Positions 1,992 through 29,980 of a stretch of 32,000 nucleotides of DNA are shown here, in pieces (positions within the stretch are counted from its first letter, which is position 1; the number at the start of each line of letters is the position of its first letter). The notes under the pieces are model-generated. The model did no database searches and was not told the DNA's origin. It saw only the letters and a list, made by a program, of their open reading frames with translations. Position numbers and translations under genes: made by a program. The stretch is from Halorhodospira halophila SL1 (GTDB lineage: Bacteria > Pseudomonadota > Gammaproteobacteria > Nitrococcales > Halorhodospiraceae), in NCBI RefSeq assembly GCF_000015585.1, contig NC_008789.1, forward strand, positions 1,830,001 to 1,862,000, written 5' to 3'.

Positions 1992-3764
1992 TCACCGGAC
2001 CGGGCGCAAGCGCCGTTCGGCCGGGGCAGGTTCCGGAAAGTACTGACGTGACGGGACACAGGCGAGCACATCAAGTTCCCGCTGGAAGGCCCATCCCTCC
2101 CCGGGATGAACGGCCTGCCAGGCATCCAAACCGCCCGCCAGAGAGTGGGTTGTCCGCCCATCCGCGGCGTATTGCCACCCTCGGACGGCCTGCGCCTCAT
2201 CGAGCTCCCTGCGCAAGTGCCAGCGATCGCGGCCGAACTCGTCCAGCGCACCGGAGAAGATCAGCGGCTCAACCTGTATCGCCGGCGCGGTGCCTCCGAA
2301 CCCCCGGATGATGAGATCCATCAGGCTGCGGTACTCACCCCCGCGGCGGCGCAGCACCAGTCGGTCGGCGGTCTGCCGGTCGATCTGCGCAATCGCCCCG
2401 AGGCCGTAGATCACCGTGTTCCGATCCAGGGGGCGAAACCCCCAGTCGCTGCGATTGATATCCGGTGGCAGCACGGTCACACCGTCACTCAACGCCTCCT
2501 TGCAGAGGCGAATGAGAATCTCCCGATGCGGACAGACGCCATCCGGCCCGCCTCCCACCCCATAACGCACACCGCCCCGAGGCGTCACCCGCCGCAGCGC
2601 CCGGTTCAGCCGCGCAGCCTGGAAAACCGCCGGGTAGCGTGCCTTGTAGTAGGCCTGACGGTAAGCCTCGGTGACCTCGACCAGCGTGGCCGCCCGATCC
2701 ACCACCTGGGCCAGGCCCTGGCGCAGGGCACGAAGCAGATAAAGCCCCCGCGCGTAGGGAAGCTGGCAACGGGCAGCGATGCGCTCGCCGAGCTGCCGGG
2801 AAAGCTCCCCCTCGTGGGCATCGCCCCCCTCCTCGCTTAGCCGTTGTGCGAGTCCGACCGCCTCGGCCAGCTCACAACCGAGCAACCGGGCCAGTGCCGC
2901 GACCACCTGCTCGCGGTAGAGCCAGATGTATCCCGTGGGGGCGAGGATGTCCTCGAGCTCGGGATGGGGCAATGGCGGACGGCTCGCGCCCGTGCGCGCC
3001 GCCCGATACCGCTCGAGCAGACCGTGCGGCGCCCCATCTCGGGCCGCCACCACGACCTGTGTCACTTCCTCGAGACTGCGCGGCGCCGCCTCCCGCATGC
3101 GCTCCTGCAACTGCGCATCCTCCAGCAGCGGGATCCCGGCGGTCTCCCCGCGGGCGATCAGGCGCAGGGTATCCGGATCATCCCACGGATAGGCCCAACG
3201 CAGGGGATCGCAGTCGCGGTTGTCGTTGAGTGCACGGGCCAGGCGGACCATCTCGCAGGTCAAGGCGAGCGTCGGGTCGCGCCCCACCACGACCTCGATC
3301 CCCTGTTCCGGCAGCGCCGCAGCGGCCGCACCCCCCTGGCGCAACGCCGAGCCCAGTTCCGCCTGCTCGGCGCGGGTGGCGACGCGCAAGTGCAGACGCC
3401 GGGCCTCCAGCTCGCGCCCGAAGCCGAGGAACGGCAACCCGTGATCGATGGGATCGATACCGTTGAGACCCAGCAGGTGCAGCAGCAGCGACCCGCTCTG
3501 CGGGCCGTACCCCGGCCCGAAGGTGACTCCACGGCCCCGCAGATCCTGCACCACCCAGGAGAGTTCCAGCAGCACCCCCGGCTCCAGACCCAGGCGTGCA
3601 AAGGCTGCCATCTCCTGCTCGACGCGCCGCTGGTAGCGCGTACGCCGCTCGCCGAGGGCCCGGCGCACGCAGCCACCATCGGCGGCATCCCAAAGCCGAT
3701 CCCAGGCGGCGCGCTCCAGCGCGCCCCCACGGAACGGAACGATGGTCGTGGCGTCGTCGTGCAT
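1992..3764 (-). CDS. DnaE (DNA polymerase III alpha)-like protein lacking the PHP, thumb and OB domains and with a substituted catalytic motif; function unknown, possibly a pseudo-enzyme
   Basis: 590-aa ORF. By eye it aligns in a single frame to E. coli DnaE motifs: [30 protein letters not shown] vs [40 protein letters not shown] vs [24 protein letters not shown] vs [23 protein letters not shown] vs [26 protein letters not shown] vs [27 protein letters not shown] vs [22 protein letters not shown] vs LIMSGAFDRLG. High GC3 is consistent with coding. Confidence 0.7.
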   Translation of the reverse strand: [590 protein letters not shown]

Positions 3765-3770
3765 GTTCTG

Positions 3771-3800
3771 ACTATAGCCGCGCCGGAGCCAGACCGTCGA
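3771..3800 (-). promoter_or_regulatory. Candidate sigma70-type promoter directly abutting the DnaE-like ATG (possible leaderless mRNA)
   Basis: Minus strand reads TCGACG (3800..3795), an 18-nt spacer, then TATAGT (3776..3771), then 6 nt (CAGAAC), then the ATG at 3764. No Shine-Dalgarno motif lies in the 47-nt gap after tadA. An AT-rich hexamer is conspicuous in this GC-rich context. Confidence 0.3.
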
Positions 3801-3811
3801 CGCGGCCGGGG

Positions 3812-4266
3812 TTAACGCCGGGCGCGAAAGAATTCACGCAGCAGCCCGGCGGCCGCCTCGCCGGAGACGCCAGCGGTCACCTCCACCCGATGGTTATGCC
3901 CGGGCAGACCGAGCAGGTCGAACTGCCCCCCACAGGCACCGGTTTTGGGATCCGCGGCGCCGTAGACCAGGCGCTCGATGCGGGCGTGGATCAATGCCCC
4001 GGCACACATGAAGCACGGCTCGAGGGTGACGTAGAGCGTTGCCCCGGGGAGGCGATACGCCCCCGCGGCCTGACCGGCCGCGCGCAGCGCGTTGATCTCG
4101 GCATGGGCGGTTGGATCGCGGCTGACGATCGGCTGGTTCCTCCCTTCGCCGAGCAGTACCCCGTCGCGGACCACCACCGCCCCCACGGGCACCTCGCCCT
4201 GGTCCGCGGCATATCGCGCCAACTCCAGCGCTCGCGCCATCCAGGCCGCATCGGCGCGCGCCCCAC

Positions 4267-4270
<4 letters not shown>
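3812..4270 (-). CDS. tadA: tRNA-specific adenosine deaminase TadA
   Basis: CDA-fold motifs are present: [11 protein letters not shown] (HAE zinc/catalytic motif) and [12 protein letters not shown] (PCxxC). The protein resembles E. coli TadA throughout. I chose the GTG at 4270, which overlaps the guaA TGA (GTGA), because it gives the same N-terminal length as E. coli TadA. The track ORF extends to 4393, inside guaA. An ATG at 4240 is an alternative start. Confidence 0.85.
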
Positions 4271-5856
<1,586 letters not shown>

Positions 5857-5875
5857 TGGCAACGGCTCCAGATGA

Positions 5876-7420
<1,545 letters not shown>

Positions 7421-11013: not shown

Positions 11014-11967
11014 TCACAGGGCGTCCCGACCGTGGGGTGCATCGAGATCCAACTGCGGCATCCGAGCGACCAGCCCCGCAGGGTTCAGGAAGGCGTGACT
11101 GCGGAAATAGTGGTGGCGGATATGCACGAAGTCGGTGGTCTCCCGGAAAGCCGGCATCTGGTAGAGCTCGCGCAGATACCCCATCAGGTTCGGATACTCG
11201 CGGATCTGGCGTTGCGAGCACTTGAAGTGCACGGCGTAGACGGCATCGAAGCGGATCAGCGTGGTATAGAGGCAGATATCCGCCTCGGTGAGACGATCGC
11301 CGCATAGATAGCGCTGCCCGCCCAACACCGCCTCCCAGTGATCCAGGGCGGCGTAGAGGGTATCGGCGGCCTCTTCGTACGCCTGCTGACTGCCGGCAAA
11401 ACCGCAGCGGTAGACGCCGTTGTTGATCGGCTCGTAGATCGCGTCGATGGTCGCATCCACCGCCTCGATATCATCTGCCGGGGCCAGGTCCAGGTCCGTG
11501 CCTGCCAGCGGGCTGAAATGGTGATTGAACATCCGCAGGAGGTCGCGGGACTCGTTGTTGACCAGCGTGCCCTCCCGACAGTCCCACAGGGCCGGCACGG
11601 TGACTCGACCATTGGCTCGGGGCTCGGCAGCGGTATAGATCTGGTGGAGGTAACGGGCCCCGTGGATTGGGTCACCGGTGGCACCGGGGAAGTCGTCGCT
11701 CAGTTCCCAACCGTTGTCCAGCATCAGCGGATGGACCACCGACACCGAGATCACCGGCTCCAGGCCCTTCAGCCGGCGGGCGATCAGCACCCGATGAGCC
11801 CAGGGACACGCCAGTGAGACGTAGACGTGGTAACGCCCCGCCTCAGGCGCGAAGCGCCCGCCCGGCTCGATCCAGTCCCGGAAACGACTCGTGTCACGCT
11901 GAAAGCGCCCGGCCTCATCGCGCTTGTACGACTCTTGCGTCCATTGCCCATCGACCAGCAAGCCCAT
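11014..11967 (-). CDS. yqjG: Glutathionyl-hydroquinone reductase (Xi-class GST, YqjG-like)
   Basis: MGLLVDGQWTQESY...RYHVYVSLACPWAHRVLIARRLKGLEPVISVSVVHPLMLDNGWE parallels E. coli YqjG (MGQLIDGVW...RYHLYVSLACPWAHRTLI...), including the CPWA active site. GGAGAGGG lies upstream of the ATG at 11967. The track ORF extension to 12030 runs into the upstream gene's terminator. Confidence 0.9.
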   Translation of the reverse strand: MGLLVDGQWTQESYKRDEAGRFQRDTSRFRDWIEPGGRFAPEAGRYHVYVSLACPWAHRVLIARRLKGLEPVISVSVVHPLMLDNGWELSDDFPGATGDPIHGARYLHQIYTAAEPRANGRVTVPALWDCREGTLVNNESRDLLRMFNHHFSPLAGTDLDLAPADDIEAVDATIDAIYEPINNGVYRCGFAGSQQAYEEAADTLYAALDHWEAVLGGQRYLCGDRLTEADICLYTTLIRFDAVYAVHFKCSQRQIREYPNLMGYLRELYQMPAFRETTDFVHIRHHYFRSHAFLNPAGLVARMPQLDLDAPHGRDAL

Positions 11968-12003
11968 TGCCCTCTCCCGGGCGGCCATCGCGCCGCCATG
12001 GCC

Positions 12004-12044
12004 CAAACAAAAAAGGCGGAGTGACCGCACCCGGTCACCCCGCC
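12004..12044 (-). terminator. Rho-independent terminator of the acidic-protein gene
   Basis: Minus strand reads GGCGGGGTGACC-GGGTGC-GGTCACTCCGCC followed by TTTTTTGTTTG, about 30 nt after the stop at 12073. Confidence 0.8.
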
Positions 12045-12072
12045 CGCTCCGTCCGGGGACTGAACCCCCCGG

Positions 12073-12654
12073 CTACTCCAGGCCCTCAGGGACCTGTTGC
12101 TGCATACCTTCCTGCACCCGCTGCTGGAGCGCCTCCAGTTCGGACATGAGCTCGGCCGTCTCCGGATAGTCTTCCTCCATTGCGGCCAGCAGGTCCTCTT
12201 GGAACTCGCGCATGTCGCGCTCCATGCTCTCGCGGAAGTCGTCATCGCGCATGGCTTCCTGCTGCTCCTGCTGGAGCTGCATCTGCGCCTCGTGGAACTC
12301 CTCGGCCAGCTCCTGCTGTTCCTCTTCAGAGACATCCCCGGCGTCGAAGCGCTCGTAGATCTCCTGCATGCGCGCATAGTGGCGCTCAGGGTCGTAGCCA
12401 AGATCTTCCATCTTGGCGGTAGCGCGCTCCTCCAGCCGACGCTGCTTCTCCTGCAGTTCGTCACTGGCCTCGAAGGTTTCCTGCTGGATCTGCCCCAGCT
12501 GCCTTTGCAGCTCCTGGAGCCGCTGCTGCGCCTCCATCAACTCCGCGTCCTGGGCCCCGGGGGCCTGCTGCTCGCCATCCTGAGCCAGCGAGACCTGCAG
12601 CGGGGCTGCGGCAATGAGCAGCGCGAGGAGCGCCGCCGTCGTCGTGCGAATCAT
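12073..12654 (-). CDS. Secreted acidic Gln/Glu-rich coiled-coil-like protein (paralogue 1), unknown function
   Basis: Sec signal peptide MIRTTTAALLALLIAAAPLQVSLA. The mature part is dominated by E, Q, D and M. AAGGGAG Shine-Dalgarno lies 7 nt upstream of the ATG. It is clearly paralogous to the next gene (QRLQELQRQLGQIQQ vs QRMQEIQQQLGQMQQ; MEDLGYD vs MEDMGYD; QEAMRDDDF vs QEAMQDEDF). Confidence 0.8.
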   Translation of the reverse strand: MIRTTTAALLALLIAAAPLQVSLAQDGEQQAPGAQDAELMEAQQRLQELQRQLGQIQQETFEASDELQEKQRRLEERATAKMEDLGYDPERHYARMQEIYERFDAGDVSEEEQQELAEEFHEAQMQLQQEQQEAMRDDDFRESMERDMREFQEDLLAAMEEDYPETAELMSELEALQQRVQEGMQQQVPEGLE

Positions 12655-12763
12655 TGGTGAACTCCCTTAGCTATTCCCACCACGGAAGCGGCCAGGTCGC
12701 TACCGCGCCGGCCTATGTTAGCACCCGACGCCGACGGCGCACCTCTATCCCAGGTTTTGGGGT

Positions 12764-13348
12764 TTACTGGGGCATCTCCCCCTCGGGCATCTGCTGCTGA
12801 CCGCCCATGCCCTGCTGCATCTCAGCCTGCAGTTCCTCCATCTCCTGCATCAGGTCCTCGGCCTGAGGATTCTCGTCGTACATGGTGTCGATTAGGTCCT
12901 GCTCCAGCTGCTGGCGGTCCTCCTGCCACGGCTGGACAAAGTCCTCATCCTGCATGGCCTCCTGCTGGGCCTGCTGCAGCTCCATGTGGATCTGCTGATC
13001 CTCCTGCATGCGCTGCTGGACCTCCTCCTGGGACATCTCGCCGGAGTGCATCGCCTCCATGGTCTCTTCCAGGCGCTCGATGTCCTGGCGGACATTGTCG
13101 TAGCCCATGTCTTCCATCTGGTCCAGCAGCCGGTCATCCAGCTCCTCGGCGCGCTCTTCCAGCTCCGGGTTGGACTCGAGGGTGTCCTGCTGCATCTGGC
13201 CCAGCTGCTGCTGGATCTCCTGCATGCGCTGCTGGCCCTCGGACATCTGCGGCTGCATGCCCTGTCCCTCATCGGGGGCCATCTGAGCGTAGGCACCTGA
13301 GGTGGCGAGCATCAGGACAATCGCGGAAGCGGCAGTCTTGCGGTACAT
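12764..13348 (-). CDS. Secreted acidic Gln/Glu/Met-rich protein (paralogue 2), unknown function
   Basis: I chose the ATG at 13348 (MYRKTAASAIVLMLATSGAYA signal peptide; GAGGAG Shine-Dalgarno 6 nt upstream). The track ORF begins 12 codons earlier. About 20 Met occur in roughly 170 mature residues, there is no Cys, and the C-terminus is MQQGMGGQQQMPEGEMPQ. Confidence 0.8.
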   Translation of the reverse strand: MYRKTAASAIVLMLATSGAYAQMAPDEGQGMQPQMSEGQQRMQEIQQQLGQMQQDTLESNPELEERAEELDDRLLDQMEDMGYDNVRQDIERLEETMEAMHSGEMSQEEVQQRMQEDQQIHMELQQAQQEAMQDEDFVQPWQEDRQQLEQDLIDTMYDENPQAEDLMQEMEELQAEMQQGMGGQQQMPEGEMPQ

Positions 13349-13541
13349 AAACGACTCCTCGTCAAACCAGTTCGGTGCGTTCAAACCGTCGCAACGGCCT
13401 TACCCCGGAAGACAGCGCCCAGGGGCAAATGGTTCCGGACCCCCGCGGAGCCGACCCGCCCGGATCCGCGACGAATGTGCGCAGACGTCCACCACCCGGG
13501 CATTTATCAGGAACCCTGCTTTAGCTGATCAGTTTTTCTTA

Positions 13542-13571
13542 TTGCACCCCCCGGAAGCACACCGACAAAAT
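13542..13571 (+). promoter_or_regulatory. Candidate sigma70 promoter for the Prx-Grx gene
   Basis: TTGCAC (13542..13547), an 18-nt spacer, then CAAAAT (13566..13571), inside the only AT-rich patch of the 270-bp divergent intergenic region. A GGAG Shine-Dalgarno lies 8 nt before the ATG at 13619. Confidence 0.3.
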
Positions 13572-13618
13572 GTGGATATCTTTGACTTCTTCTTATTCCA
13601 ACCCAACGGAGATAAACC

Positions 13619-14365
13619 ATGTCGCACCCGAAGGAAGGCCAACCCGTCCCACGCGTCACTTTCCGGACCCGCGTCAACGGGCAGTGGCAGGACGTCACCA
13701 CCGACGAGCTCTTCAAGGGCAAAACGGTGGTCGTGTTCGCCCTGCCGGGGGCCTTCACCCCGACCTGCTCCTCGACCCACCTGCCCCGCTACAATGAGCT
13801 GGCGCCGGTGTTCTGGGATAACGGTGTAGACGACATCGTCTGCCTGTCGGTCAACGACGCCTTCGTCATGGAGGAGTGGCGACGGGATCAGCACGCCGAG
13901 AACGTCACCTTCATCCCCGACGGCAACGGCGAGTTCACCGAGGGCATGGGCATGCTGGTGGACAAGAACGACCTGGGCTTCGGCAAGCGCTCCTGGCGCT
14001 ACGCCATGGTGGTCCGGGACGGCGTTATCGAGCAGATGTTCGTCGAGCCCGAGAAGCCCGGCGACCCCTTCGAGGTCTCCGACGCCGACACCATGCTGCG
14101 TCACATCAACCCGGAGGCCCCGCACCCGTCCTTCGTGACCCTGTTCAGCAAGCCTGGCTGCCCGCATTGCGCCCGGGCCAAGGCCCTGCTCGAGGAGCAC
14201 GGCTACGATTACGAAGAGATCTGCCTGGGCGAGGGGATCACCACCCGCTCGGTCCGGGCGGCCACCGGCTCGGGCATGGTCCCGCAGGTGCTCATCGACG
14301 GGCGCCTGGTCGGCGGTGCCGACGACCTGGAGGCGCGGCTCGGGCGCACCCGCTCGGCCGCCTGA
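13619..14365 (+). CDS. Hybrid peroxiredoxin-glutaredoxin (Prx5-type peroxidase fused to Grx)
   Basis: The N-terminal Prx5 domain carries the peroxidatic Cys motif (VVFALPGAFTPTCSSTHLP). The C-terminal glutaredoxin has the CPHC active site (VTLFSKPGCPHCARAK) and a GG motif (IDGRLVGGADDL). The architecture matches known Prx/Grx hybrids from Haemophilus and Chromatium. Confidence 0.92.
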   Translation: MSHPKEGQPVPRVTFRTRVNGQWQDVTTDELFKGKTVVVFALPGAFTPTCSSTHLPRYNELAPVFWDNGVDDIVCLSVNDAFVMEEWRRDQHAENVTFIPDGNGEFTEGMGMLVDKNDLGFGKRSWRYAMVVRDGVIEQMFVEPEKPGDPFEVSDADTMLRHINPEAPHPSFVTLFSKPGCPHCARAKALLEEHGYDYEEICLGEGITTRSVRAATGSGMVPQVLIDGRLVGGADDLEARLGRTRSAA

Positions 14366-14444: not shown

Positions 14445-15140
14445 CTAGAAGCGCAGGAAGGCCCCGGCGTACGGACCGCTGAAGTCCACATCCAGGGTCA
14501 CATCACTGAAGTCGTCCAGGTCCACCGAGAACTCCCGATAACCGATCATGGCCCCCGTGTACCAGCGCCGGTAGACCATGTGGGCGCGGAAGTCCGTGAC
14601 CGAGTGGTCACCCACCGGCAGGGTCTGCAGGGTGCCCTCGAAGCCGATCCGCGACCCCGGGATGTTGACCCCCACCCGGCCGAAGAACATCGGCCGGGTG
14701 CCGGAGAGTGAGGTGTCCGGGTCGTCAGCCGCAAGCCCCGGTGTCCGCACCTCGCCGTCGAAGTTCCGCGCAGTAAAGCCCACGTCGATCCCCACCATGG
14801 GCAGCGGGATCGGCGACCAGAAGAGCGTCAGGTCGGTGTGATCCAGGTTGACGACGGTGCTCCCGGTCCCCTCCTGCTCGAGGTTGGTCCGCTCAAGGCG
14901 GACGCTCGGGATGCCCGGCAGGATGTGATCCCACTCGAACCACAGGTTCCAGTCCCGGTCGCCGTCGAGATCAATGTCACCCCCTTCGACGTCTCTCCCG
15001 AGGATCTCACCATCCGGATCGTGGAACCAGAGGTTCGCGCCGCCGGAGATACCCAGGATCCCGCCAGTAGCCTGGGCGGTGCCGGCGCAACCCAGGGCCA
15101 GGGCTGCCACGGTCACGCCCCTCAGTACGGTTCGCCGCAT
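14445..15140 (-). CDS. Outer-membrane beta-barrel protein (small OMP, possibly TIGR04219-like)
   Basis: Signal peptide MRRTVLRGVTVAALALGCAGTAQA. The sequence shows alternating amphipathic beta-strand patterns and ends with the aromatic residue pattern ...GAFLRF, typical of the BAM recognition signal. AGGAG Shine-Dalgarno lies 7 nt upstream. Confidence 0.75.
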   Translation of the reverse strand: MRRTVLRGVTVAALALGCAGTAQATGGILGISGGANLWFHDPDGEILGRDVEGGDIDLDGDRDWNLWFEWDHILPGIPSVRLERTNLEQEGTGSTVVNLDHTDLTLFWSPIPLPMVGIDVGFTARNFDGEVRTPGLAADDPDTSLSGTRPMFFGRVGVNIPGSRIGFEGTLQTLPVGDHSVTDFRAHMVYRRWYTGAMIGYREFSVDLDDFSDVTLDVDFSGPYAGAFLRF

Positions 15141-15221: not shown

Positions 15222-16781
15222 TCAGGCGACCGGGTCCGCCGGTGACACCTGGGGGAACTCGTTGATCACCCGCTCGGTCTCCGGATCGACCTCGTAAAGC
15301 TTGACATCGTATCCCCAGAGGTTGGCTAGATGGCGCAACACCGCCGTCGCCTGGCCCTTGTCCAGCGTGACCCCGTCCGTAACCCGGTGTTCGAGCACCA
15401 GGGTGCGATCACCGGCCAGATCCACGTCCACCACCTGGATATCCGGTTCCAGCCGGGCCACATCGTGTCGCTGCGCCAAGGAGCGCCGCACCGCCCGATA
15501 CCCGGCGTCGTCGTGGATGGCATCCACCAACAGCTCCGGGTCGTCGGCGTCGTCGTGGACCCGGAAAAGGCGGAAGTCTCGGATCACCTTGGGGCTGAGG
15601 AACTGCAGGATGAAGCTCTCGTCCCGGTACTCCTGCCACGCGTGGTGCCACACGCTCAGCCAGTCCCCGCTGCCAGCCACCTCGGGGAACCAGCGCCGAT
15701 CCTCCGCGGTCGGGTCGGTGGCCATGCGGCGTAGATCCTCGAGGATGGCGAACCCGAGGGCGTAGGGGTTGATGCCGGAGTAACGCGGATCATCGAACTC
15801 CGGCTGGAATACGACGCTGGTGTGGCTGTGCAGGAACTCCAGGAAAGCCCCGTCGGTCAGCTGCCCGTTTTCGTGCAGCCGGTTCATGATGTAGTAGTGC
15901 ACCGCCGTCGCGCAGCCTTCGTTCATCACCTTGGTCTGTTTCTGCGGATAGAAGTACTGCGCCACATTACGCACGATGCGCAGCACCTCCCGCTGCCAGT
16001 GCTCTAGGCGCGGGGCCCGCTTCTCCAAGAAGTACAGGAGGTTCTCTTCCGGCAATCCGAGCCGCTGCATCCGCATTTCCACCGGATCAGCCCCACCGGG
16101 CCTTTCTCCGTCCGGATCCGTGGGCACCGTGCGCCAGAGATCGTTGTAGGTCTGCTCTTCGTAGCGAATCCGCTCGATCTCGCGGTCGCGCTCCTCCCGC
16201 AGGCTACGCGTCTGCGGCTTGGGGTAGCGGTGCACCCCCTGGCTCATCAAAGCGTGGGCGGCGTCGAGTACCCGCTCGACCGCCTCCACCCCGTAGCGCT
16301 CTTCACACTCTGCGATGTACCCCTTGGCGAAATCCAGGTAGTCGAGGATGCCCTCAGCATCGGTCCACTCCCGGAAGAGCCGGTTGTTCTTGAAGAAGTG
16401 GTTGTGGCCGAAGGCAGCGTGGGCCACCACCAGCGTCTGCATGGTGAGCGTGTTCTCCTCCATGATGTAGGAGATACACGGCTTGGAGTTGATGACGATC
16501 TCGTAGGCGAGGCCGGTGTACCCCTTGCGGTAGAGCATCTCGTCCCGGGCGAAGTGCTTGCCGAACGACCAGTGCCGATAGAACAGCGGCATGCCCATCG
16601 AGGCGTAGGCATCGAGCATCTGCTCGGAGCTAATGACCTCGATCTGATTGGGGTAGATATCGAGTTTCAGCTCGTCCTGTGCGATCTGCTCGACGGCATC
16701 GTAGACGCGCATCACATCGCGATAGTCCCAGTCCAGACCGGTGAACAGGGGTTGCTGCTGAACCGCCGCGTTCGGTGCCAT
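15222..16781 (-). CDS. ycgB: SpoVR family protein (YcgB)
   Basis: Colinear with E. coli YcgB: YPNQIEVISSEQMLDAYAS, GLAYEIVINSKPCISYIMEENT, FYPQKQTKVMNEGCAT, FLHSHTSVVFQP, YSGINPYALGF. Confidence 0.93.
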   Translation of the reverse strand: MAPNAAVQQQPLFTGLDWDYRDVMRVYDAVEQIAQDELKLDIYPNQIEVISSEQMLDAYASMGMPLFYRHWSFGKHFARDEMLYRKGYTGLAYEIVINSKPCISYIMEENTLTMQTLVVAHAAFGHNHFFKNNRLFREWTDAEGILDYLDFAKGYIAECEERYGVEAVERVLDAAHALMSQGVHRYPKPQTRSLREERDREIERIRYEEQTYNDLWRTVPTDPDGERPGGADPVEMRMQRLGLPEENLLYFLEKRAPRLEHWQREVLRIVRNVAQYFYPQKQTKVMNEGCATAVHYYIMNRLHENGQLTDGAFLEFLHSHTSVVFQPEFDDPRYSGINPYALGFAILEDLRRMATDPTAEDRRWFPEVAGSGDWLSVWHHAWQEYRDESFILQFLSPKVIRDFRLFRVHDDADDPELLVDAIHDDAGYRAVRRSLAQRHDVARLEPDIQVVDVDLAGDRTLVLEHRVTDGVTLDKGQATAVLRHLANLWGYDVKLYEVDPETERVINEFPQVSPADPVA

Positions 16782-16821
16782 CGGGGTCCCCTCCGTCGCT
16801 CGAGGATTCAGGGCTCAGCGC

Positions 16822-18102
16822 TCAGGCCTTCAGCTCAGCCGGCGTAAAGAGATCCCGGAAGACCGGGAAGATGTCGCCACGGGTCTGTACCCGCCGCATG
16901 GCCAGGGGCGACTCCCCCCGAGCCAAGCGATCGTAGGCTCGCCACAAATCGGACGGCACGTGGAAGGCTTGCCCACCCCCCACCTCGATGTAGGCAAAGT
17001 ACTGGCACAGCGGGAGGATGCCGTCGGCCATCAACCGCGTGGTGGCCGGATTGTCCGCCGGGGTGTTGTCGCCGTCCGAGGCCTGCGCTCCGTAGATATT
17101 CCAGTCCTGGACCGGATAACGATCGTCAACGATGTCGCGCATCATCGCCAGCGCCGGGGAGACCAGCGTCCCACCGGTCTCGCGGGAGTAGAAGAAGGTG
17201 TCCTCGTCAACCTCCTGGGCGATATGGGTGTGGCGGATAAAGACGATATCCACATGCCGATAGCGGCGTTCGAGGAAGAGGTAGAGGAGCATGAAGAACC
17301 GTTTGGCCAGATCCTTCATCTCTTCAGTCATGGAGCCCGAGACGTCCATCAGGCAGAACATGACCGCCTGGGAGATCGGCTGCGGGACGTGGTCGAAGCG
17401 GTTGTAACGGATATCCACCGGATCGATGTACGGGATGGCCCGGGACCGCTCCTGCTTGTTCCGGCGTAGCTCGATGAGCTCACGCAGCCGCTCGGGCTCA
17501 GCTCCGGAACGCTCCAGGCGGTCGATCTCCTCATCCAGTGCCTGCAGGTCCTCCCCCTTCGGCCGACGCAGGGCGATGCGCCGCGACAGGGAATTGCGCA
17601 TGGTCCGCTCGACGTTGAGGTTCGAAGGGGAGCCGCTGACCGAGTACCCTGCCCGCTGCTGGGTGTACTGCTCGGTCTTCTTCACCTGGCGCTTGACCAG
17701 ATCCGGCAACTCCAGCCCCTCGAAGAAGAGATCGAGGAACTCGTCGCGACTGACGGCGAAGGTGAACTCGTCCTCCCCCTCGCCATCGGGGCTACCCTCG
17801 CGCCCCCCGCTACCCCCCTGCCCCTCGGGGCGCGAGATGGTATCGCCGACCACGTACTCCTTGTTACCAGGGACCACGTGCTCACGCACCCCGCGATCGG
17901 GCGCCTTGCGAAAGCTCGGCTCGTGGAGCCCGTCGGCGGGGATCGTGATCTGCTCCCCGCCGGCCACGTCGGTCACCTTGCGCCGGCCGGAGGCCTCGTT
18001 GACTGCATCGAGAACCTGGCGCTTGGCACGCCGGAGAAAACGCTGGCGGTTGGCCAGGCTCTTGCCCTTCGGATTGCGGCGCCGGTCGATGATATTGACC
18101 AA
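16822..18102 (-). CDS. yeaH: YeaH/YhbH family protein (DUF444, vWA-like)
   Basis: (M)[24 protein letters not shown] parallels E. coli YeaH [39 protein letters not shown] and QASDGDN are also conserved. The start codon is a TTG at 18102, with a G-run Shine-Dalgarno 7 nt upstream. Confidence 0.92.
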   Translation of the reverse strand: [426 protein letters not shown]

Positions 18103-18126
18103 GGACGCACCCCCCCTATTACCGGA

Positions 18127-20073
18127 TCAGCCGGCCTGCTTGACGCGCATGTACCACTCCACCAGACGTCGCACCTGGCGCTCGGTATACCCCCGCTCGA
18201 CCATGCGGCGGACAAACTCACTGTGCTTGCGCTCGGTCTCGGAGTCGCCCTTCGTGGTAAAGCTGATCACCGGGAGCAGATCCTCCACCTGGCTGAACAT
18301 CCGCTTCTCGATGACTTCGCGGATCTTCTCGTAGGAGGTCCAGCTGGGCATGTGACCACCCTGCTGGGCCTTAGCGCGCAGGGCGAACTTGACCACCTCG
18401 TTGCGGAAGTCCTTGGGGTTGGCGATACCCGCCGGCTTTTCGATCTTCGTCAGCTCCTGGTTCAGCGCCTGCCGGTCCATCAGCTGCCCGGTGTCGGGAT
18501 CCTTGAAGTCCTGGTCCTCGATCCACGCGTCGGCGTAGCCCACGTAGCGCTCGAAGAGGTTCTGACCGAAGTCGTCGTAGGACTCCAGGTACGCCTTCTG
18601 GATCTCGTTGCCGATGAACTCGGCGTAGCGCGGTGCCAGCTCCGCCTTGATGATCTCCAGATACTTGCGTTCGGTCTCCTCGGGAAACTGCTCGCGCTTG
18701 ATGTTCTGCTCGAGCAGATAGAGCAGGTGGACCGGATCGGCCGCCACCTCCGCGGTCTCGTAGTTGAAAGTCTGCGACAGAACCTTGAAGGCGAAGCGCG
18801 TGGAGATCCCGTCCATACCCTCGTTGACCCCGGCCTGGTCGCGGTACTCCTGCATGGACTTGGCCTTCGGGTCGGTCTCCTTCAGGCTCTCGCCGTCGTA
18901 GATGCGCATCTTGGAATAGAGGCTGGAGTTCTCATGCTCCTTGAGCCGGGTGAGCACGGAGAAACGGGCCATGATCTCCAGGGTCCAGGGTGCGCACGGG
19001 GCGTCGGCGAGCTCGCTCTCACGGATGAGCTTGTCGTAGATCTGCCGCTCCTCGCTGACGCGCAGGCAGTACGGCACCTTGATCACCGAGATGCGGTCGA
19101 GGAACGCCTCGTTATTCTTGTTGTTCCGGAAGCTCTGCCACTCCGACTCGTTCGAGTGCGCCATGACCAGCCCGTGGAACGGGATGGCACCAATGTTCTC
19201 GGAGCCGACGTAGTTGCCCTCCTGGGTGGCGGTGAGCAGAGGGTGGAGCATCTTGATCGGCGCCTTGAACATCTCGACGAACTCGAGGATGCCCTGGTTG
19301 GCGCGATTGAGCCCCCCAGAGTAGCTGTACGCGTCGGTGTCGTTCTGGCTGTAGAGCTCCAGCTTGCGGATGTCCACCTTACCGACCAGCGACGAGATGT
19401 CCTGATTGTTCTCGTCACCGGGTTCGGTCTTCGCCACGCCGATCTGCCGCAGCTTCGAGGGGTAGATCCGCACCACCCGGAAGCGGTTCAGATCACCGCC
19501 GAACTCGTCCAGTCGCTTCACCGCCCAGGGCGAGAGCAGTCCGCTCAGCTTGCGCCGCGGGATGCCGAAGCGTTCCTCCAGTTCCGGCCCATGCTGGTCC
19601 GGATCGAACAGCCCCAGCGGGCTTTCGAAGATCGGACTGACCTCCTCGCCCGCCTTGAGCACGTAGATGGGGTAGCGCTCCATCAACTGCTTGAGCCGCT
19701 CGGCCAGCGAGGACTTGCCACCCCCGACCGGCCCGAGGAGATAAAGGATCTGCTTGCGCTCCTCCAGCCCCTGGGCCGCGTAGTTGAGGAAACCGACCAG
19801 CCGCTCGATGGTTTCCTCCATGCCGTAGAAGTCCTCGAAGGCGGGGTAGATCTTCAGGGTGCGGTTGAGAAAGATGCGCCCCAGCCGCTCGTCCTTCGAG
19901 GTGTCGTAGACCTGCGGCTCACCGATTGCCGCGACCAGCCGCTCCGCCGGAGACGCGTAGGCCGTCGGGTCGTCCCGGCAGAGTTCCAGGTACTCGGCCA
20001 GGGTCAGCTGCTGCTCCTGGCGGCGTTCGTAGCTGCGGGCGTAGCGGGCAATCAGGTCTTCGGCGGTATCCAT
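18127..20073 (-). CDS. yeaG: PrkA family serine protein kinase (YeaG)
   Basis: From MDTAEDLIARYARSYE...LTLAEYLELCRDDPTAYASPAERL the protein matches the YeaG N-terminus, including the Walker A motif LLGPVGGGKSSLAERLK. The track ORF adds 25 non-conserved codons, up to 20148. Confidence 0.93.
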   Translation of the reverse strand: MDTAEDLIARYARSYERRQEQQLTLAEYLELCRDDPTAYASPAERLVAAIGEPQVYDTSKDERLGRIFLNRTLKIYPAFEDFYGMEETIERLVGFLNYAAQGLEERKQILYLLGPVGGGKSSLAERLKQLMERYPIYVLKAGEEVSPIFESPLGLFDPDQHGPELEERFGIPRRKLSGLLSPWAVKRLDEFGGDLNRFRVVRIYPSKLRQIGVAKTEPGDENNQDISSLVGKVDIRKLELYSQNDTDAYSYSGGLNRANQGILEFVEMFKAPIKMLHPLLTATQEGNYVGSENIGAIPFHGLVMAHSNESEWQSFRNNKNNEAFLDRISVIKVPYCLRVSEERQIYDKLIRESELADAPCAPWTLEIMARFSVLTRLKEHENSSLYSKMRIYDGESLKETDPKAKSMQEYRDQAGVNEGMDGISTRFAFKVLSQTFNYETAEVAADPVHLLYLLEQNIKREQFPEETERKYLEIIKAELAPRYAEFIGNEIQKAYLESYDDFGQNLFERYVGYADAWIEDQDFKDPDTGQLMDRQALNQELTKIEKPAGIANPKDFRNEVVKFALRAKAQQGGHMPSWTSYEKIREVIEKRMFSQVEDLLPVISFTTKGDSETERKHSEFVRRMVERGYTERQVRRLVEWYMRVKQAG

Positions 20074-20259
20074 ATGCAGCACCCCCCTCACGGAGTCTTG
20101 AGGTGAAGTCGCGAAAGAGCGAAGGCAGCTCCTATTGATTGGACGCAAAAATGCGCATCAATGTTCCGGAAGAAAGGCAAAGCGGGTCGCACTCCGTCGG
20201 CGGGAACGTCCGGGCGCGCGCCCGAGCGGGAGGCGGCCGGCCCCGGCCGGCGGACGGGA

Positions 20260-28513: not shown

Positions 28514-29335
28514 TCAGCGCAGCCGTTCCAGACCGCTCTCCAGCGAGGCGCTGGAAACCTGGCCGGTGTGGGAATCCACCAATTGGCCCTGCTCATCATA
28601 GAAAAAGGTGGCCGGAAGGCCGCGGGTACCGGTGGCGTCGCTCCAGCGCTGATGGGGATCCATCAGGATATTGTCCAGCGACGGCGCATGCTCCTCCAGA
28701 TACCCCTGGACCTGCCCGGCGTCCTCACCCTGGTTGACGAAGACGAACTTGACCCCGTCCTCGCGCTCCTGCGCCTGCTCGAAGACCGGCTTCTCCTGCT
28801 GGCACGCCGGACACCAGGTCGCCCACAGGTTGACCACCACCGGCTTCCCGGTCTCCTCAATCAAGGCGGGCAGATCCGTATGCTCGCCTTCGAGGGTGCT
28901 CACCGCCACGTCCGGCACGGAACGGGACTGCTGGTCGATGACCAGCAGCGGGCCCGCCGTCACCCCCCAGACGATGCCGCCGGCCACCACCGCCGTGACC
29001 AGGGCGCGGCGCTGCTGCGGCGACCGCCAGAACCGCCAGGCCAGGTAGGCCAGGCCGGCCACGACGCCGCCGACAGGGTCGAACCCGCCATCGCGGATAT
29101 CCACCACCCCCCACAGGCTTTCGAAGCTCTCCCAGTAGTGGAACACGAACAGCACCCGCGCCCCCACCAGACCCACCAGCACCAGGCTGAACAGGCTGTC
29201 ACTAACGCTCACACCGCTGCGCCGGGCAGCCAGGCCACCGGCGATCAGGGCGACCACCAGCGCCAGGATGAGCAGGATCTGGCCAATGGAGAGCACCAAA
29301 GGCCCCAAGGCGACGGTCTGATTCAAGGCACTCAT
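28514..29335 (-). CDS. Membrane-anchored TlpA/ResA-family thiol:disulfide oxidoreductase with an Lgt-N-terminal-like four-TM domain
   Basis: The C-terminal thioredoxin fold carries a WCPAC active site ([17 protein letters not shown]...[11 protein letters not shown]). The N-terminal roughly 130 aa contain four hydrophobic segments that resemble the first TMs of Lgt (see findings). The ATG at 29335 overlaps the chaC TGA (ATGA). Confidence 0.82.
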   Translation of the reverse strand: [273 protein letters not shown]

Positions 29336-29922
29336 GGGCTGACAACTCCGGTTGAACGGGGGAAGAGATCCTCCATGGCCTCCTCCAGGGCGAAAACGTG
29401 CGGGTCCTCCTCGCCCAGGGCTCGCAGCGCGCGCGCCAGCTCCAGGAGGTAGTCCCGGTTGGAGCCGCTGGGGCCGCTGCAGCTGACAATCTGCCGGGCC
29501 ATATCCGGGATCGGTGCAGGACCGAGGAACGCGGGGTTCTCCTCCGTGGCAATGTAGACCAGCCCCCGATCCTCACCGCCATCCAGAAACCGCAGCGGCG
29601 TGGTGAAACGGAGATAACCGTTCTTCTCGCGCAGATCCAGGGGTCCCAGCGCTTCAGGCCGAATCCGATAGGCCATGCCGACACAGCGCACGCTGGGATC
29701 CTCGATCAGCGTGGCCACGCGCCCCGGCGCCTGCGGCGTACCCCGGTGATCGTGGGAGCCCTGCCAGAAACGGCGCTTCCAGCCGTGAATCACCGCCGGG
29801 CGACACGCCAGATAGGGGAAATCGGCTTTGTAGATCAGGGAGCCGTAACCGAACAGCCAGAAGCTGTCCTGGCCCGGAAACGGCCGGTGCTGTCGGTTGA
29901 TCGCCGTGGTGTCCGCAACCAT
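29332..29922 (-). CDS. chaC: Glutathione-specific gamma-glutamylcyclotransferase (ChaC family)
   Basis: FWLFGYGSLIYKADF (the YGSL motif), GWKRRFWQGSHDHRGTPQAPGRVATL, REKNGY and GSNRDYL parallel E. coli ChaC. I chose the ATG at 29922. The track ORF starts at a TTG at 29964. Confidence 0.85.
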   Translation of the reverse strand: MVADTTAINRQHRPFPGQDSFWLFGYGSLIYKADFPYLACRPAVIHGWKRRFWQGSHDHRGTPQAPGRVATLIEDPSVRCVGMAYRIRPEALGPLDLREKNGYLRFTTPLRFLDGGEDRGLVYIATEENPAFLGPAPIPDMARQIVSCSGPSGSNRDYLLELARALRALGEEDPHVFALEEAMEDLFPRSTGVVSP

Positions 29923-29980
29923 GAGTCCGAGGATACCAGACCCTCCAGCCCATGCTCTCCCCAAACGGGCTGATCTAGCC

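Follow-up and report, generated by a model that had tools for sequence, protein, structure and literature searches.

A 32,000-nucleotide stretch of the Halorhodospira halophila SL1 chromosome (NC_008789.1, positions 1,830,001 to 1,862,000; hereafter, the window) carries two adjacent minus-strand genes, designated here P2 and P1, that belong to a widespread family of secreted proteins, roughly 200 residues long, without a match in Pfam, in NCBIfam, among Protein Data Bank (PDB) sequences or in Foldseek; the predicted fold is likewise unmatched, and the family is undescribed among current annotation resources. Our reading of the pair, which we favor only tentatively, is that both products are periplasmic stress proteins under the control of an extracytoplasmic function (ECF) sigma factor, analogous but not homologous to Spy and CpxP. 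Much higher confidence attaches to the descriptive part of this work, i.e., the genes, their paralogy, the internal duplication, the family, the predicted fold, and the conserved promoter and terminator motifs, while Sec export, operon structure, ECF dependence, and chaperone-like activity are what we infer from them. The genes and their translation and export signals are as follows; signal peptides were called with a simple rule set of our own rather than with SignalP.

12764..13348, minus strand: P2 gene, first of the pair, encoding the Met/Gln-rich paralogue of 194 amino acids (aa) counted from the ATG (open reading frame [ORF] and translation)
13355..13360, minus strand: Shine-Dalgarno sequence of P2, GAGGAG (sequence)
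13286..13348, minus strand: putative P2 signal peptide, aa 1 to 21, MYRKTAASAIVLMLATSGAYA, cleaved before Q (sequence; rule based)
12073..12654, minus strand: P1 gene, encoding the second paralogue of 193 aa (ORF)
12662..12667, minus strand: Shine-Dalgarno sequence of P1, AGGGAG (sequence)
12583..12654, minus strand: putative P1 signal peptide, aa 1 to 24, MIRTTTAALLALLIAAAPLQVSLA, cleaved before Q (sequence; rule based)

An earlier, sequence-only reading of this DNA had described a tandem pair of secreted, extremely acidic paralogues here, and this outline held: both ORFs coincide exactly with the limits that it gave, and the two products share 39% identity over 178 aa (E value, 4e-23). Both genes (fraction of G and C at third codon positions, 0.84 to 0.89) are under purifying selection relative to their orthologues, with ratios of nonsynonymous to synonymous substitution rates (dN/dS) of 0.05 to 0.47 for P2, whose orthologues are present in eight loci, and 0.08 to 0.29 for P1; it follows that the plus-strand mirror ORFs are artifacts of a GC-rich, repetitive coding sequence. 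Both N termini combine a basic n-region and a hydrophobic h-region with an AxA-type cleavage site (VSLA/QD in P1 and AYA/QM in P2), and no membrane anchor was found by the same rules. Since neither protein contains Cys, there is no lipobox, and they are not lipoproteins. AlphaFold2 leaves the signal peptide residues unstructured, with a predicted local distance difference test (pLDDT) score of about 50 in P2 and below 50 at residues 1 to 25 of P1. Across the family, 162 of 171 members have a signal peptide-like N terminus and only 3 of 171 a lipobox-like string, again by a rule-based check. Judging from these N termini, P1 and P2 would be exported to the periplasm by the Sec pathway.

The extreme composition noted earlier was also borne out. 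The mature proteins have net charges of −34 (P1) and −40 (P2) and an isoelectric point (pI) of 4.1 each, compared with 4.5 to 10.2 for the products of neighboring genes. Gln makes up 18 to 23% of the mature sequences (1 to 7% in neighboring genes), Met 6% in P1 and 11.6% in P2 (1 to 3% in neighboring genes), and Asp plus Glu 24 to 25% of the whole proteins (11 to 17% in neighboring genes), and each protein has just two His residues.

The extent of the family became apparent only through exhaustive searching. While a word-indexed search with P2 returned just four relatives, each of them Halorhodospira-type, comparing P1 exhaustively with 1.84 billion cluster representatives by phmmer yielded at least 273 clusters at an E value of ≤1e-3, of which 77 reached ≤1e-10. 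Nearly all of the 150 best matches listed are about 175 to 255 aa long and aligned over nearly their full length. Most family clusters are metagenomic singletons without informative names; matches in genomes stem from Halorhodospira species, from metagenome-assembled genomes (MAGs) of Ectothiorhodospiraceae from soda lake sediments and, more remotely, from MAGs of the Planctomycetes-Verrucomicrobia-Chlamydiae (PVC) group and of Kiritimatiellae. The nearest relative of the window is an Ectothiorhodospiraceae MAG, with 92 to 95% amino acid identity.

None of the resources consulted offered a name for this family. Scanning P1, P2, and 65 members against Pfam and NCBIfam gave no convincing match, and we dismissed the matches to Com_YlbF, FUT8_N_cat, SMC, and ApoLp-III that did appear as coiled-coil-type noise. 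Sequence-profile searches of the PDB, with profiles built from 65 and from 136 sequences, returned nothing below an E value of 0.03. Foldseek, which is weak on all-helical folds, found no match at an E value of ≤1e-3, and template modeling (TM) scores stayed below 0.35, when the P1 and P2 models were compared with the PDB and the P1 model with BFVD. Literature searches turned up no description of the family, and Rfam contained no RNA family matching the window.

The sequence-only reading had proposed a module of about 65 aa, present twice in each protein and thus four times in about 1.3 kb. The duplication and the four copies stand, whereas the module proved to be somewhat longer, at about 70 aa, and to consist of three helices. 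Single-sequence methods are weak here, and the repeat was recovered by profile-profile comparison only: BLASTP self-comparison did not detect it in either protein, and Smith-Waterman alignment of the N-terminal with the C-terminal half was marginal against composition-matched shuffles (z of 1.3 for P1 and 2.6 for P2). By contrast, HHalign comparison of the two half-profiles, built from the 65-sequence alignment, gave a probability of 96.6%, an E value of 6e-10, and a score of 47.9 over 66 columns, compared with a maximum of 16.2 among 60 column-shuffled controls and 14.2 for a reversed profile. The helical bundles suggested previously were predicted with confidence by AlphaFold2, which placed six helices, as two sets of three, in both P1 (pLDDT, 87.9; predicted TM score, 0.75) and P2 (87.3 and 0.73). 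Combining these models with the HHalign result, we delimit the following modules.

13040..13252, minus strand: predicted P2 N-terminal three-helix module, aa 33 to 103, with helices at aa 33 to 59, 61 to 80, and 86 to 102
12803..13039, minus strand: predicted P2 C-terminal three-helix module, aa 104 to 182, with helices at aa 107 to 131, 135 to 159, and 162 to 182
12337..12555, minus strand: predicted P1 N-terminal three-helix module, aa 34 to 106, with helices at aa 34 to 63, 65 to 84, and 89 to 105
12094..12336, minus strand: predicted P1 C-terminal three-helix module, aa 107 to 187, with helices at aa 110 to 134, 138 to 162, and 166 to 187

Beyond its C-terminal module, P2 ends in a disordered tail rich in Gln, Gly, Met, and Pro, where pLDDT drops to about 72. 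The models are thus best explained by a compact, all-alpha domain in each mature protein, made up of two homologous three-helix modules and flanked by short, disordered, Gln/Gly/Met/Pro-rich ends.

Conservation, counted over 171 sequences and given in P1 numbering, is concentrated at about 25 positions. In the N-terminal module, these include L53, I56, Q57, N64-P65 (a helix break), L67, M82, G86, and P89, and in the C-terminal module L127, A130, Q131, A134, D137, A158, M159, P164, and L169; the corresponding motifs are L-G/x-x-I-Q-Q and L-Q-Q-A-Q-x-x-A-M-Q-D. When the two modules are aligned, I56-Q57 is equivalent to A130-Q131 and M82 to M159, the latter two being retained in 139 and 168 of the 171 sequences, respectively. 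Richness in Gln is a family trait (median, 15%), and no Cys is conserved across the family. Charge behaves differently. Because it is not conserved, with pI values ranging from 4.1 to 11.8 over 169 members, 65 of which are basic and Lys rich, the best explanation for why P1 and P2 are so acidic is a Lys depletion typical of halophiles on a surface that is highly charged and Gln rich; extreme acidity is a trait of the lineage, not of the family. An acidic proteome has been described for Halorhodospira, an extremely halophilic clade (PMC7042295, PMC3817357), and the acidity of the pair fits that description.

A similar distinction applies to Met, which has a family median of 4.5%, with P2 at the extreme; Met richness is limited to the P2 lineage (5 to 11%). 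The roughly 20 Met residues previously counted in P2 are indeed there (20 in the mature protein), but the MxxM/MxxxM-like spacing ascribed to them is at chance level (5 pairs versus 4.3 expected; P = 0.44). Moreover, although that reading had made its metal-binding idea depend on conservation of the Met positions among orthologues, just 4 of the 20 are invariant among the eight orthologues, and the others alternate with Leu or Ile. As most P2 Met positions are hydrophobic across the family, the best explanation is that most of the extra Met replaces Leu or Ile at hydrophobic positions.

The clearest regulatory clue lies upstream of P2, and the pair is closed by a terminator.

13411..13436, minus strand: candidate ECF/sigma-E-type promoter, GGAACC-N17-GTC, beginning 88 nucleotides (nt) upstream of the P2 ATG (conserved motif)
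12014..12045, minus strand: putative intrinsic terminator after P1, with a 14-bp stem containing 10 G-C pairs, followed by TTTTTTGTTTG (sequence)

Each of the 11 Ectothiorhodospiraceae-type loci examined contains GGAAC-N17/18-GTC on the strand of its first or only family gene, at a conserved position no more than 200 nt ahead of that gene, whereas a mere 0.0125 occurrences are expected by chance per 200-nt upstream region; its spacer and flanks have diverged freely among these loci. The spacing of the P2 motif, which corresponds to 16 nt if the −35 element is counted as 7 nt, reportedly falls within the range known for sigma-E promoters. The elements match those of Escherichia coli sigma-E, GGAACTT and GTC (PMC6648896). 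In sequence terms, the candidate thus combines the following features of a sigma-E/ECF promoter: a GGAAC −35 element, a GTC −10 element, appropriate spacing, and conservation in orthologous loci. Neither an ECF motif nor a sigma-70-like promoter or terminator was found in the 109-nt spacer between P2 and P1 (12655 to 12763), and the terminator separates the pair from the downstream glutathione S-transferase (GST) gene. The simplest reading of this arrangement is that P2 and P1 form one bicistronic unit, which would be driven by the ECF-type promoter.

A short hairpin (CCGT-TGCG-ACGG; 13386 to 13397, minus strand) was noticed where the P2 transcript is predicted to begin. Two related loci have counterparts with other stem sequences (AACCGT/ACGGTT in L005 and AACCG/CGGTT in L007), although RNAalifold provided weak support (six pairs, one of them compensatory), and the hairpin may represent an mRNA-stabilizing stem-loop.

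Outside the Halorhodospira clade, a different promoter is associated with the family. Wherever the upstream DNA is long enough, the family gene, except in L011, L012, L022, and L024, is preceded by exactly one copy of TTGACA-N16-TGnTAnnnT (in L008, L010, L013 to L021, and L023), located 61 to 124 nt upstream of the start codon, with no other occurrence in the 462 kb searched and none in the upstream region of the window (13349 to 13618). This motif represents a sigma-70-like −35 element and an extended −10 element, separated by an unusually long spacer, fixed at 19 nt and unconserved in sequence. While such a 19-nt spacer recalls MerR-type control, neither a dyad nor a regulator gene was seen with this promoter. 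In L008, L010, and L016, the sigma-70-like and ECF-type promoters occur in tandem; Halorhodospira-type loci keep the ECF-type promoter only.

How P1 and P2 might act is suggested by a combination of presence and absence: without conserved Cys, His, or charge and without a partner gene, but with disordered Gln/Gly/Met-rich ends and ECF-type control, they point to cofactor-free, stress-induced periplasmic proteins, and it is because the sigma-E-like promoter is conserved that a role in envelope stress seems most likely. The sigma-E regulon is reportedly enriched in periplasmic folding factors. In the scheme that we tentatively favor, envelope stress would induce the P2-P1 unit through the sigma-E-like promoter, with transcription ending at the terminator, and both products would be exported by Sec to the periplasm and act there by binding other proteins, requiring neither ATP nor cofactors. 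Their activity would be that of a holdase-type chaperone or of a modulator of the stress pathway, working like Spy, CpxP, or ZraP without being related to them. A more ambitious version of this idea, in which the undescribed family, with its new, internally duplicated six-helix fold, forms a new class of ECF/sigma-E-controlled, ATP-independent envelope stress chaperones or modulators, and in which the Halorhodospira lineage has, after duplicating the gene, specialized one of the copies through a Met-rich, malleable hydrophobic surface, strikes us as doubtful at this point.

The likeness to Spy, CpxP, and ZraP (PF07813, PF13801), which the sequence-only reading had also raised, concerns general character: these proteins, too, are small, Sec exported, Cys free, all-alpha, and Gln rich, with disordered ends, internally repeated helical motifs, and expression tied to an envelope stress regulator. 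ZraP, in addition, has a Gly/Met-rich C-terminal tail. Beyond that, the resemblance ends. P1 and P2 are predicted to have six helices in two three-helix modules, compared with the four-helix, bent-hairpin cradle of Spy and CpxP, and their promoter is of the ECF type, as opposed to the two-component control (Cpx, Bae, or Zra) of the known proteins. The LTXXQ family (PF07813) did not match P1 or P2 at an E value of ≤10, nor did it rank with the 25 families that the 65 members hit most frequently at ≤1, and the L-T-x-x-Q motif, of which Spy and CpxP have two per protomer, is absent from the conserved family motifs. Metal_resist (PF13801) matched 4 of the 65 members at an E value of ≤1, the best at 1.2e-3, which falls short of the gathering score, and neither P1 nor P2. 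Among the 50 best Foldseek PDB matches shown, none was described as Spy, CpxP, or ZraP; no chain of that name came up in the PDB profile searches; and HHalign comparison of the family profile with individual sequences gave probabilities of <1% for Spy and CpxP and 0.8% for ZraP. What is left of the earlier suggestion is therefore an analogy, homology being negative by sequence, profile, and fold; even so, it is the only one of the roles suggested by that reading that fits the conserved ECF-type promoter.

Several observations weigh against a chaperone-like stress role. Homology to any chaperone went undetected, with nothing but subthreshold noise in Pfam and empty-handed PDB profile and Foldseek searches. 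Outside the Ectothiorhodospiraceae, the family gene has the sigma-70-like promoter, such that stress control may not be family-wide, and ECF regulons are not confined to folding functions. Gene neighborhoods vary and say little. Finally, M82 and M159, of which each module contributes one, could be near-invariant because they belong to a ligand site and not because they pack the core.

Two other families deserve mention for their superficial similarity. DUF4168 (PF13767), to which a distant resemblance had been proposed, likewise comprises secreted, helical, Gln/Glu-rich repeat proteins whose function is undescribed, with a loosely similar IQQE ... M...G.s.e.y pattern. The proposal found no backing: DUF4168 did not match P1 or P2 at an E value of ≤10 and is missing from the 25 families with the most matches to the 65 members at ≤1. 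The sulfur globule protein SgpD of Chromatiaceae, which are purple sulfur bacteria, resembles P1 and P2 in being repetitive, partly helical, and exported by Sec; its gene stands alone and has a promoter and a terminator to itself (PMC10386293). However, SgpD is restricted to Chromatiaceae and has a Pro-periodic central region and just two confident helices (PMC10386293), whereas the family described here is Pro poor, with six predicted helices, and occurs in Ectothiorhodospiraceae, which deposit sulfur extracellularly, and in PVC and Kiritimatiellae MAGs. On the basis of taxonomic distribution and architecture, as set against that published description, we ruled out SgpD.

The genomic setting of the pair is conserved among the Halorhodospira-type loci, in which the genes for PrkA, YeaH, SpoVR, and a 231-aa outer membrane-like protein are followed by a divergent peroxiredoxin-glutaredoxin (Prx-Grx) gene, P2, P1, a YqjG-type GST gene, and a thiolase gene on the opposite strand. 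The immediate neighbors in the window are the following.

13619-14365, plus strand: Prx-Grx hybrid (Redoxin plus Glutaredoxin domains), divergent from P2 and without a signal peptide
11014-12030, minus strand: YqjG/Xi-class GST (GST_N_2 plus GST_C_2 domains), without a signal peptide

Both flank the pair by synteny, and neither adjacency is kept family-wide. L003, L006, and L007 lack the Prx-Grx gene next to their family gene. The GST neighbor recurs in L008, L010, and L016, accompanied by xseA and an M23 peptidase gene, and since this is explained by inherited chromosomal synteny of the three genes, we rejected the GST as a functional partner. Indeed, across at least 15 gene neighborhood contexts, no conserved partner gene emerged, and the family gene stands alone in unrelated settings.

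Single-copy relatives occur in L006 (P1-like), in L007 (P2-like), and in the outgroup loci L008 and L010. A 4-aa insertion (MERD in P1 and WQED in P2), which just 14 of the 171 sequences share, occurs in both paralogues of the window and absent from the single-copy outgroup proteins; by this sequence marker, the tandem duplication of a single-copy gene therefore arose within the Halorhodospira clade.

Other features of the window and of the related loci were noted in passing. The 231-aa ORF (14445 to 15140, minus strand) has a signal peptide and a C terminus (...AFLRF) typical of the end of an outer membrane beta-barrel, is without a Pfam match at 1e-5, and keeps its place between SpoVR and the pair in every related locus (47 to 86% identity); from its sequence, it looks like another unannotated envelope protein. 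Two genes beyond P2 begins the PrkA (AAA_PrkA plus PrkA domains), YeaH (DUF444), and SpoVR stress/starvation cluster (15222 to 20148, minus strand), where a GGAAC-N18-GTC match, which may be due to chance, overlaps the annotated prkA start (20142 to 20167, minus strand). Farther away, a 590-aa ORF (1992 to 3764, minus strand) with a weak, partial DNA_pol3_alpha match plus finger and HHH_6 domains is too short for a full DnaE and may represent a DnaE-like gene that is truncated or unusual; it is adjoined by a tadA-like deaminase gene (3812 to 4393, minus strand). A 273-aa ORF (28514 to 29335, minus strand) is an unusual fusion of an N-terminal, partial LGT-like membrane region (aa 15 to 126) and a C-terminal Redoxin/thioredoxin-like domain (aa 139 to 261) and is followed by a ChaC-like gene (29332 to 29964). 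In the unrelated-looking metagenomic contigs L017 and L021, whose family proteins are about 35% identical to P1, MtrC/MtrF-like multiheme cytochrome genes (5319 to 7406 and 3423 to 5315, respectively) adjoin the family gene, and in L017 a gene for a FecR-type anti-sigma factor adjoins it upstream.

With these contexts in hand, the competing explanations can be weighed. Within the same stress framework, a serious alternative to a chaperone-like activity, if on balance an unlikely one, is that P1 and P2 are structural or regulatory periplasmic proteins: partners of an anti-sigma factor or of a sensor kinase, in the manner of the inhibitory role of CpxP, or scaffolds of the envelope. A gene that stands alone and whose promoter is strongly conserved whatever the lineage fits such a role, as does the anti-sigma gene of L017, and ECF regulons often include their own modulators; no partner is conserved across contexts, however, and the window contains no sigma or anti-sigma gene. 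The near-invariant pair M82 and M159, placed at equivalent positions of the two modules, with Q57 and Q131 likewise equivalent and conserved, raises the idea of a pseudosymmetric site binding a ligand or cofactor, such as a bis-Met heme, as in bacterioferritin, or Cu(I) at the module interface, and the multiheme cytochrome neighbors could be taken to point the same way. We nevertheless regard it as decidedly improbable, given that a simple up-down arrangement of the helices would put the two Met residues at opposite ends of the bundle, that no heme or metal motif is present, and that just 2 of the roughly 15 distinct contexts feature cytochrome neighbors.

The remaining explanations start from composition. 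According to the sequence-only reading, P1 and P2 might buffer Cu(I)/Ag(I), or cations in general, in the periplasm by a logic like that of SilE and PcoE, which are also periplasmic, small, Met-containing, acidic proteins. Metal would then be bound by Met thioethers, carboxylates, or both. The Met content of P2, its Met-containing disordered ends (e.g., MPEGEMPQ), the net charges of both proteins, and the near-invariance of M82 and M159 across the family would suit a metal buffer, but most of the evidence makes it improbable. The P2 Met residues are poorly conserved and spaced at chance, His/Met motif pairs are missing (two His and no Cys per protein), and neither the window nor any related locus contains cop, cus, sil, pco, or other metal resistance genes. 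SilE and PcoE are disordered without metal, whereas the P1 and P2 models are well folded, and buffering by carboxylates is at odds with family pI values as high as 11.8. The family median of 4.5% Met likewise speaks against a metal buffer. Equally built on Met, and raised by that reading as well, is the notion of a sacrificial antioxidant sink, working alongside the Prx-Grx peroxidase and a periplasmic methionine sulfoxide reductase. Although P2 is Met rich and the peroxidase gene lies next to it, we consider this very improbable: the peroxidase is predicted to be cytoplasmic and is not a constant neighbor, Met richness is confined to the P2 lineage and falls mostly at positions that are hydrophobic family-wide, and the promoter is of the ECF type, with no recognizable OxyR-type control. 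Least credible of all is a halophile-specific hydration or osmotic filler of the periplasm, in which composition rather than fold would be the function. The composition is extreme even against the genomic background, and the host clade is extremely halophilic with an acidic proteome, yet a family with many basic, Lys-rich members, presumably from nonhalophiles, conserves the fold and some 25 positions, and dN/dS values of 0.05 to 0.3 indicate constraint on sequence and not on composition alone.

At present, then, P1 and P2 define a well-delimited family of hypothetical proteins with a regulatory clue and a putative mechanism. Should the tentatively favored role as ECF-controlled periplasmic stress proteins prove true, the few periplasmic stress proteins that work without ATP (Spy, CpxP, ZraP, and Skp) would be joined by one of novel structure, and a function would be provided for at least 273 sequence clusters that have neither a Pfam or NCBIfam match nor an informative name. 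The family is found mainly in uncultured bacteria and extreme halophiles, and protein folding in a periplasm near salt saturation is poorly understood; with Lys-rich and acidic versions of one and the same predicted fold, it offers a natural series in which to follow the halophilic adaptation of a secreted protein.

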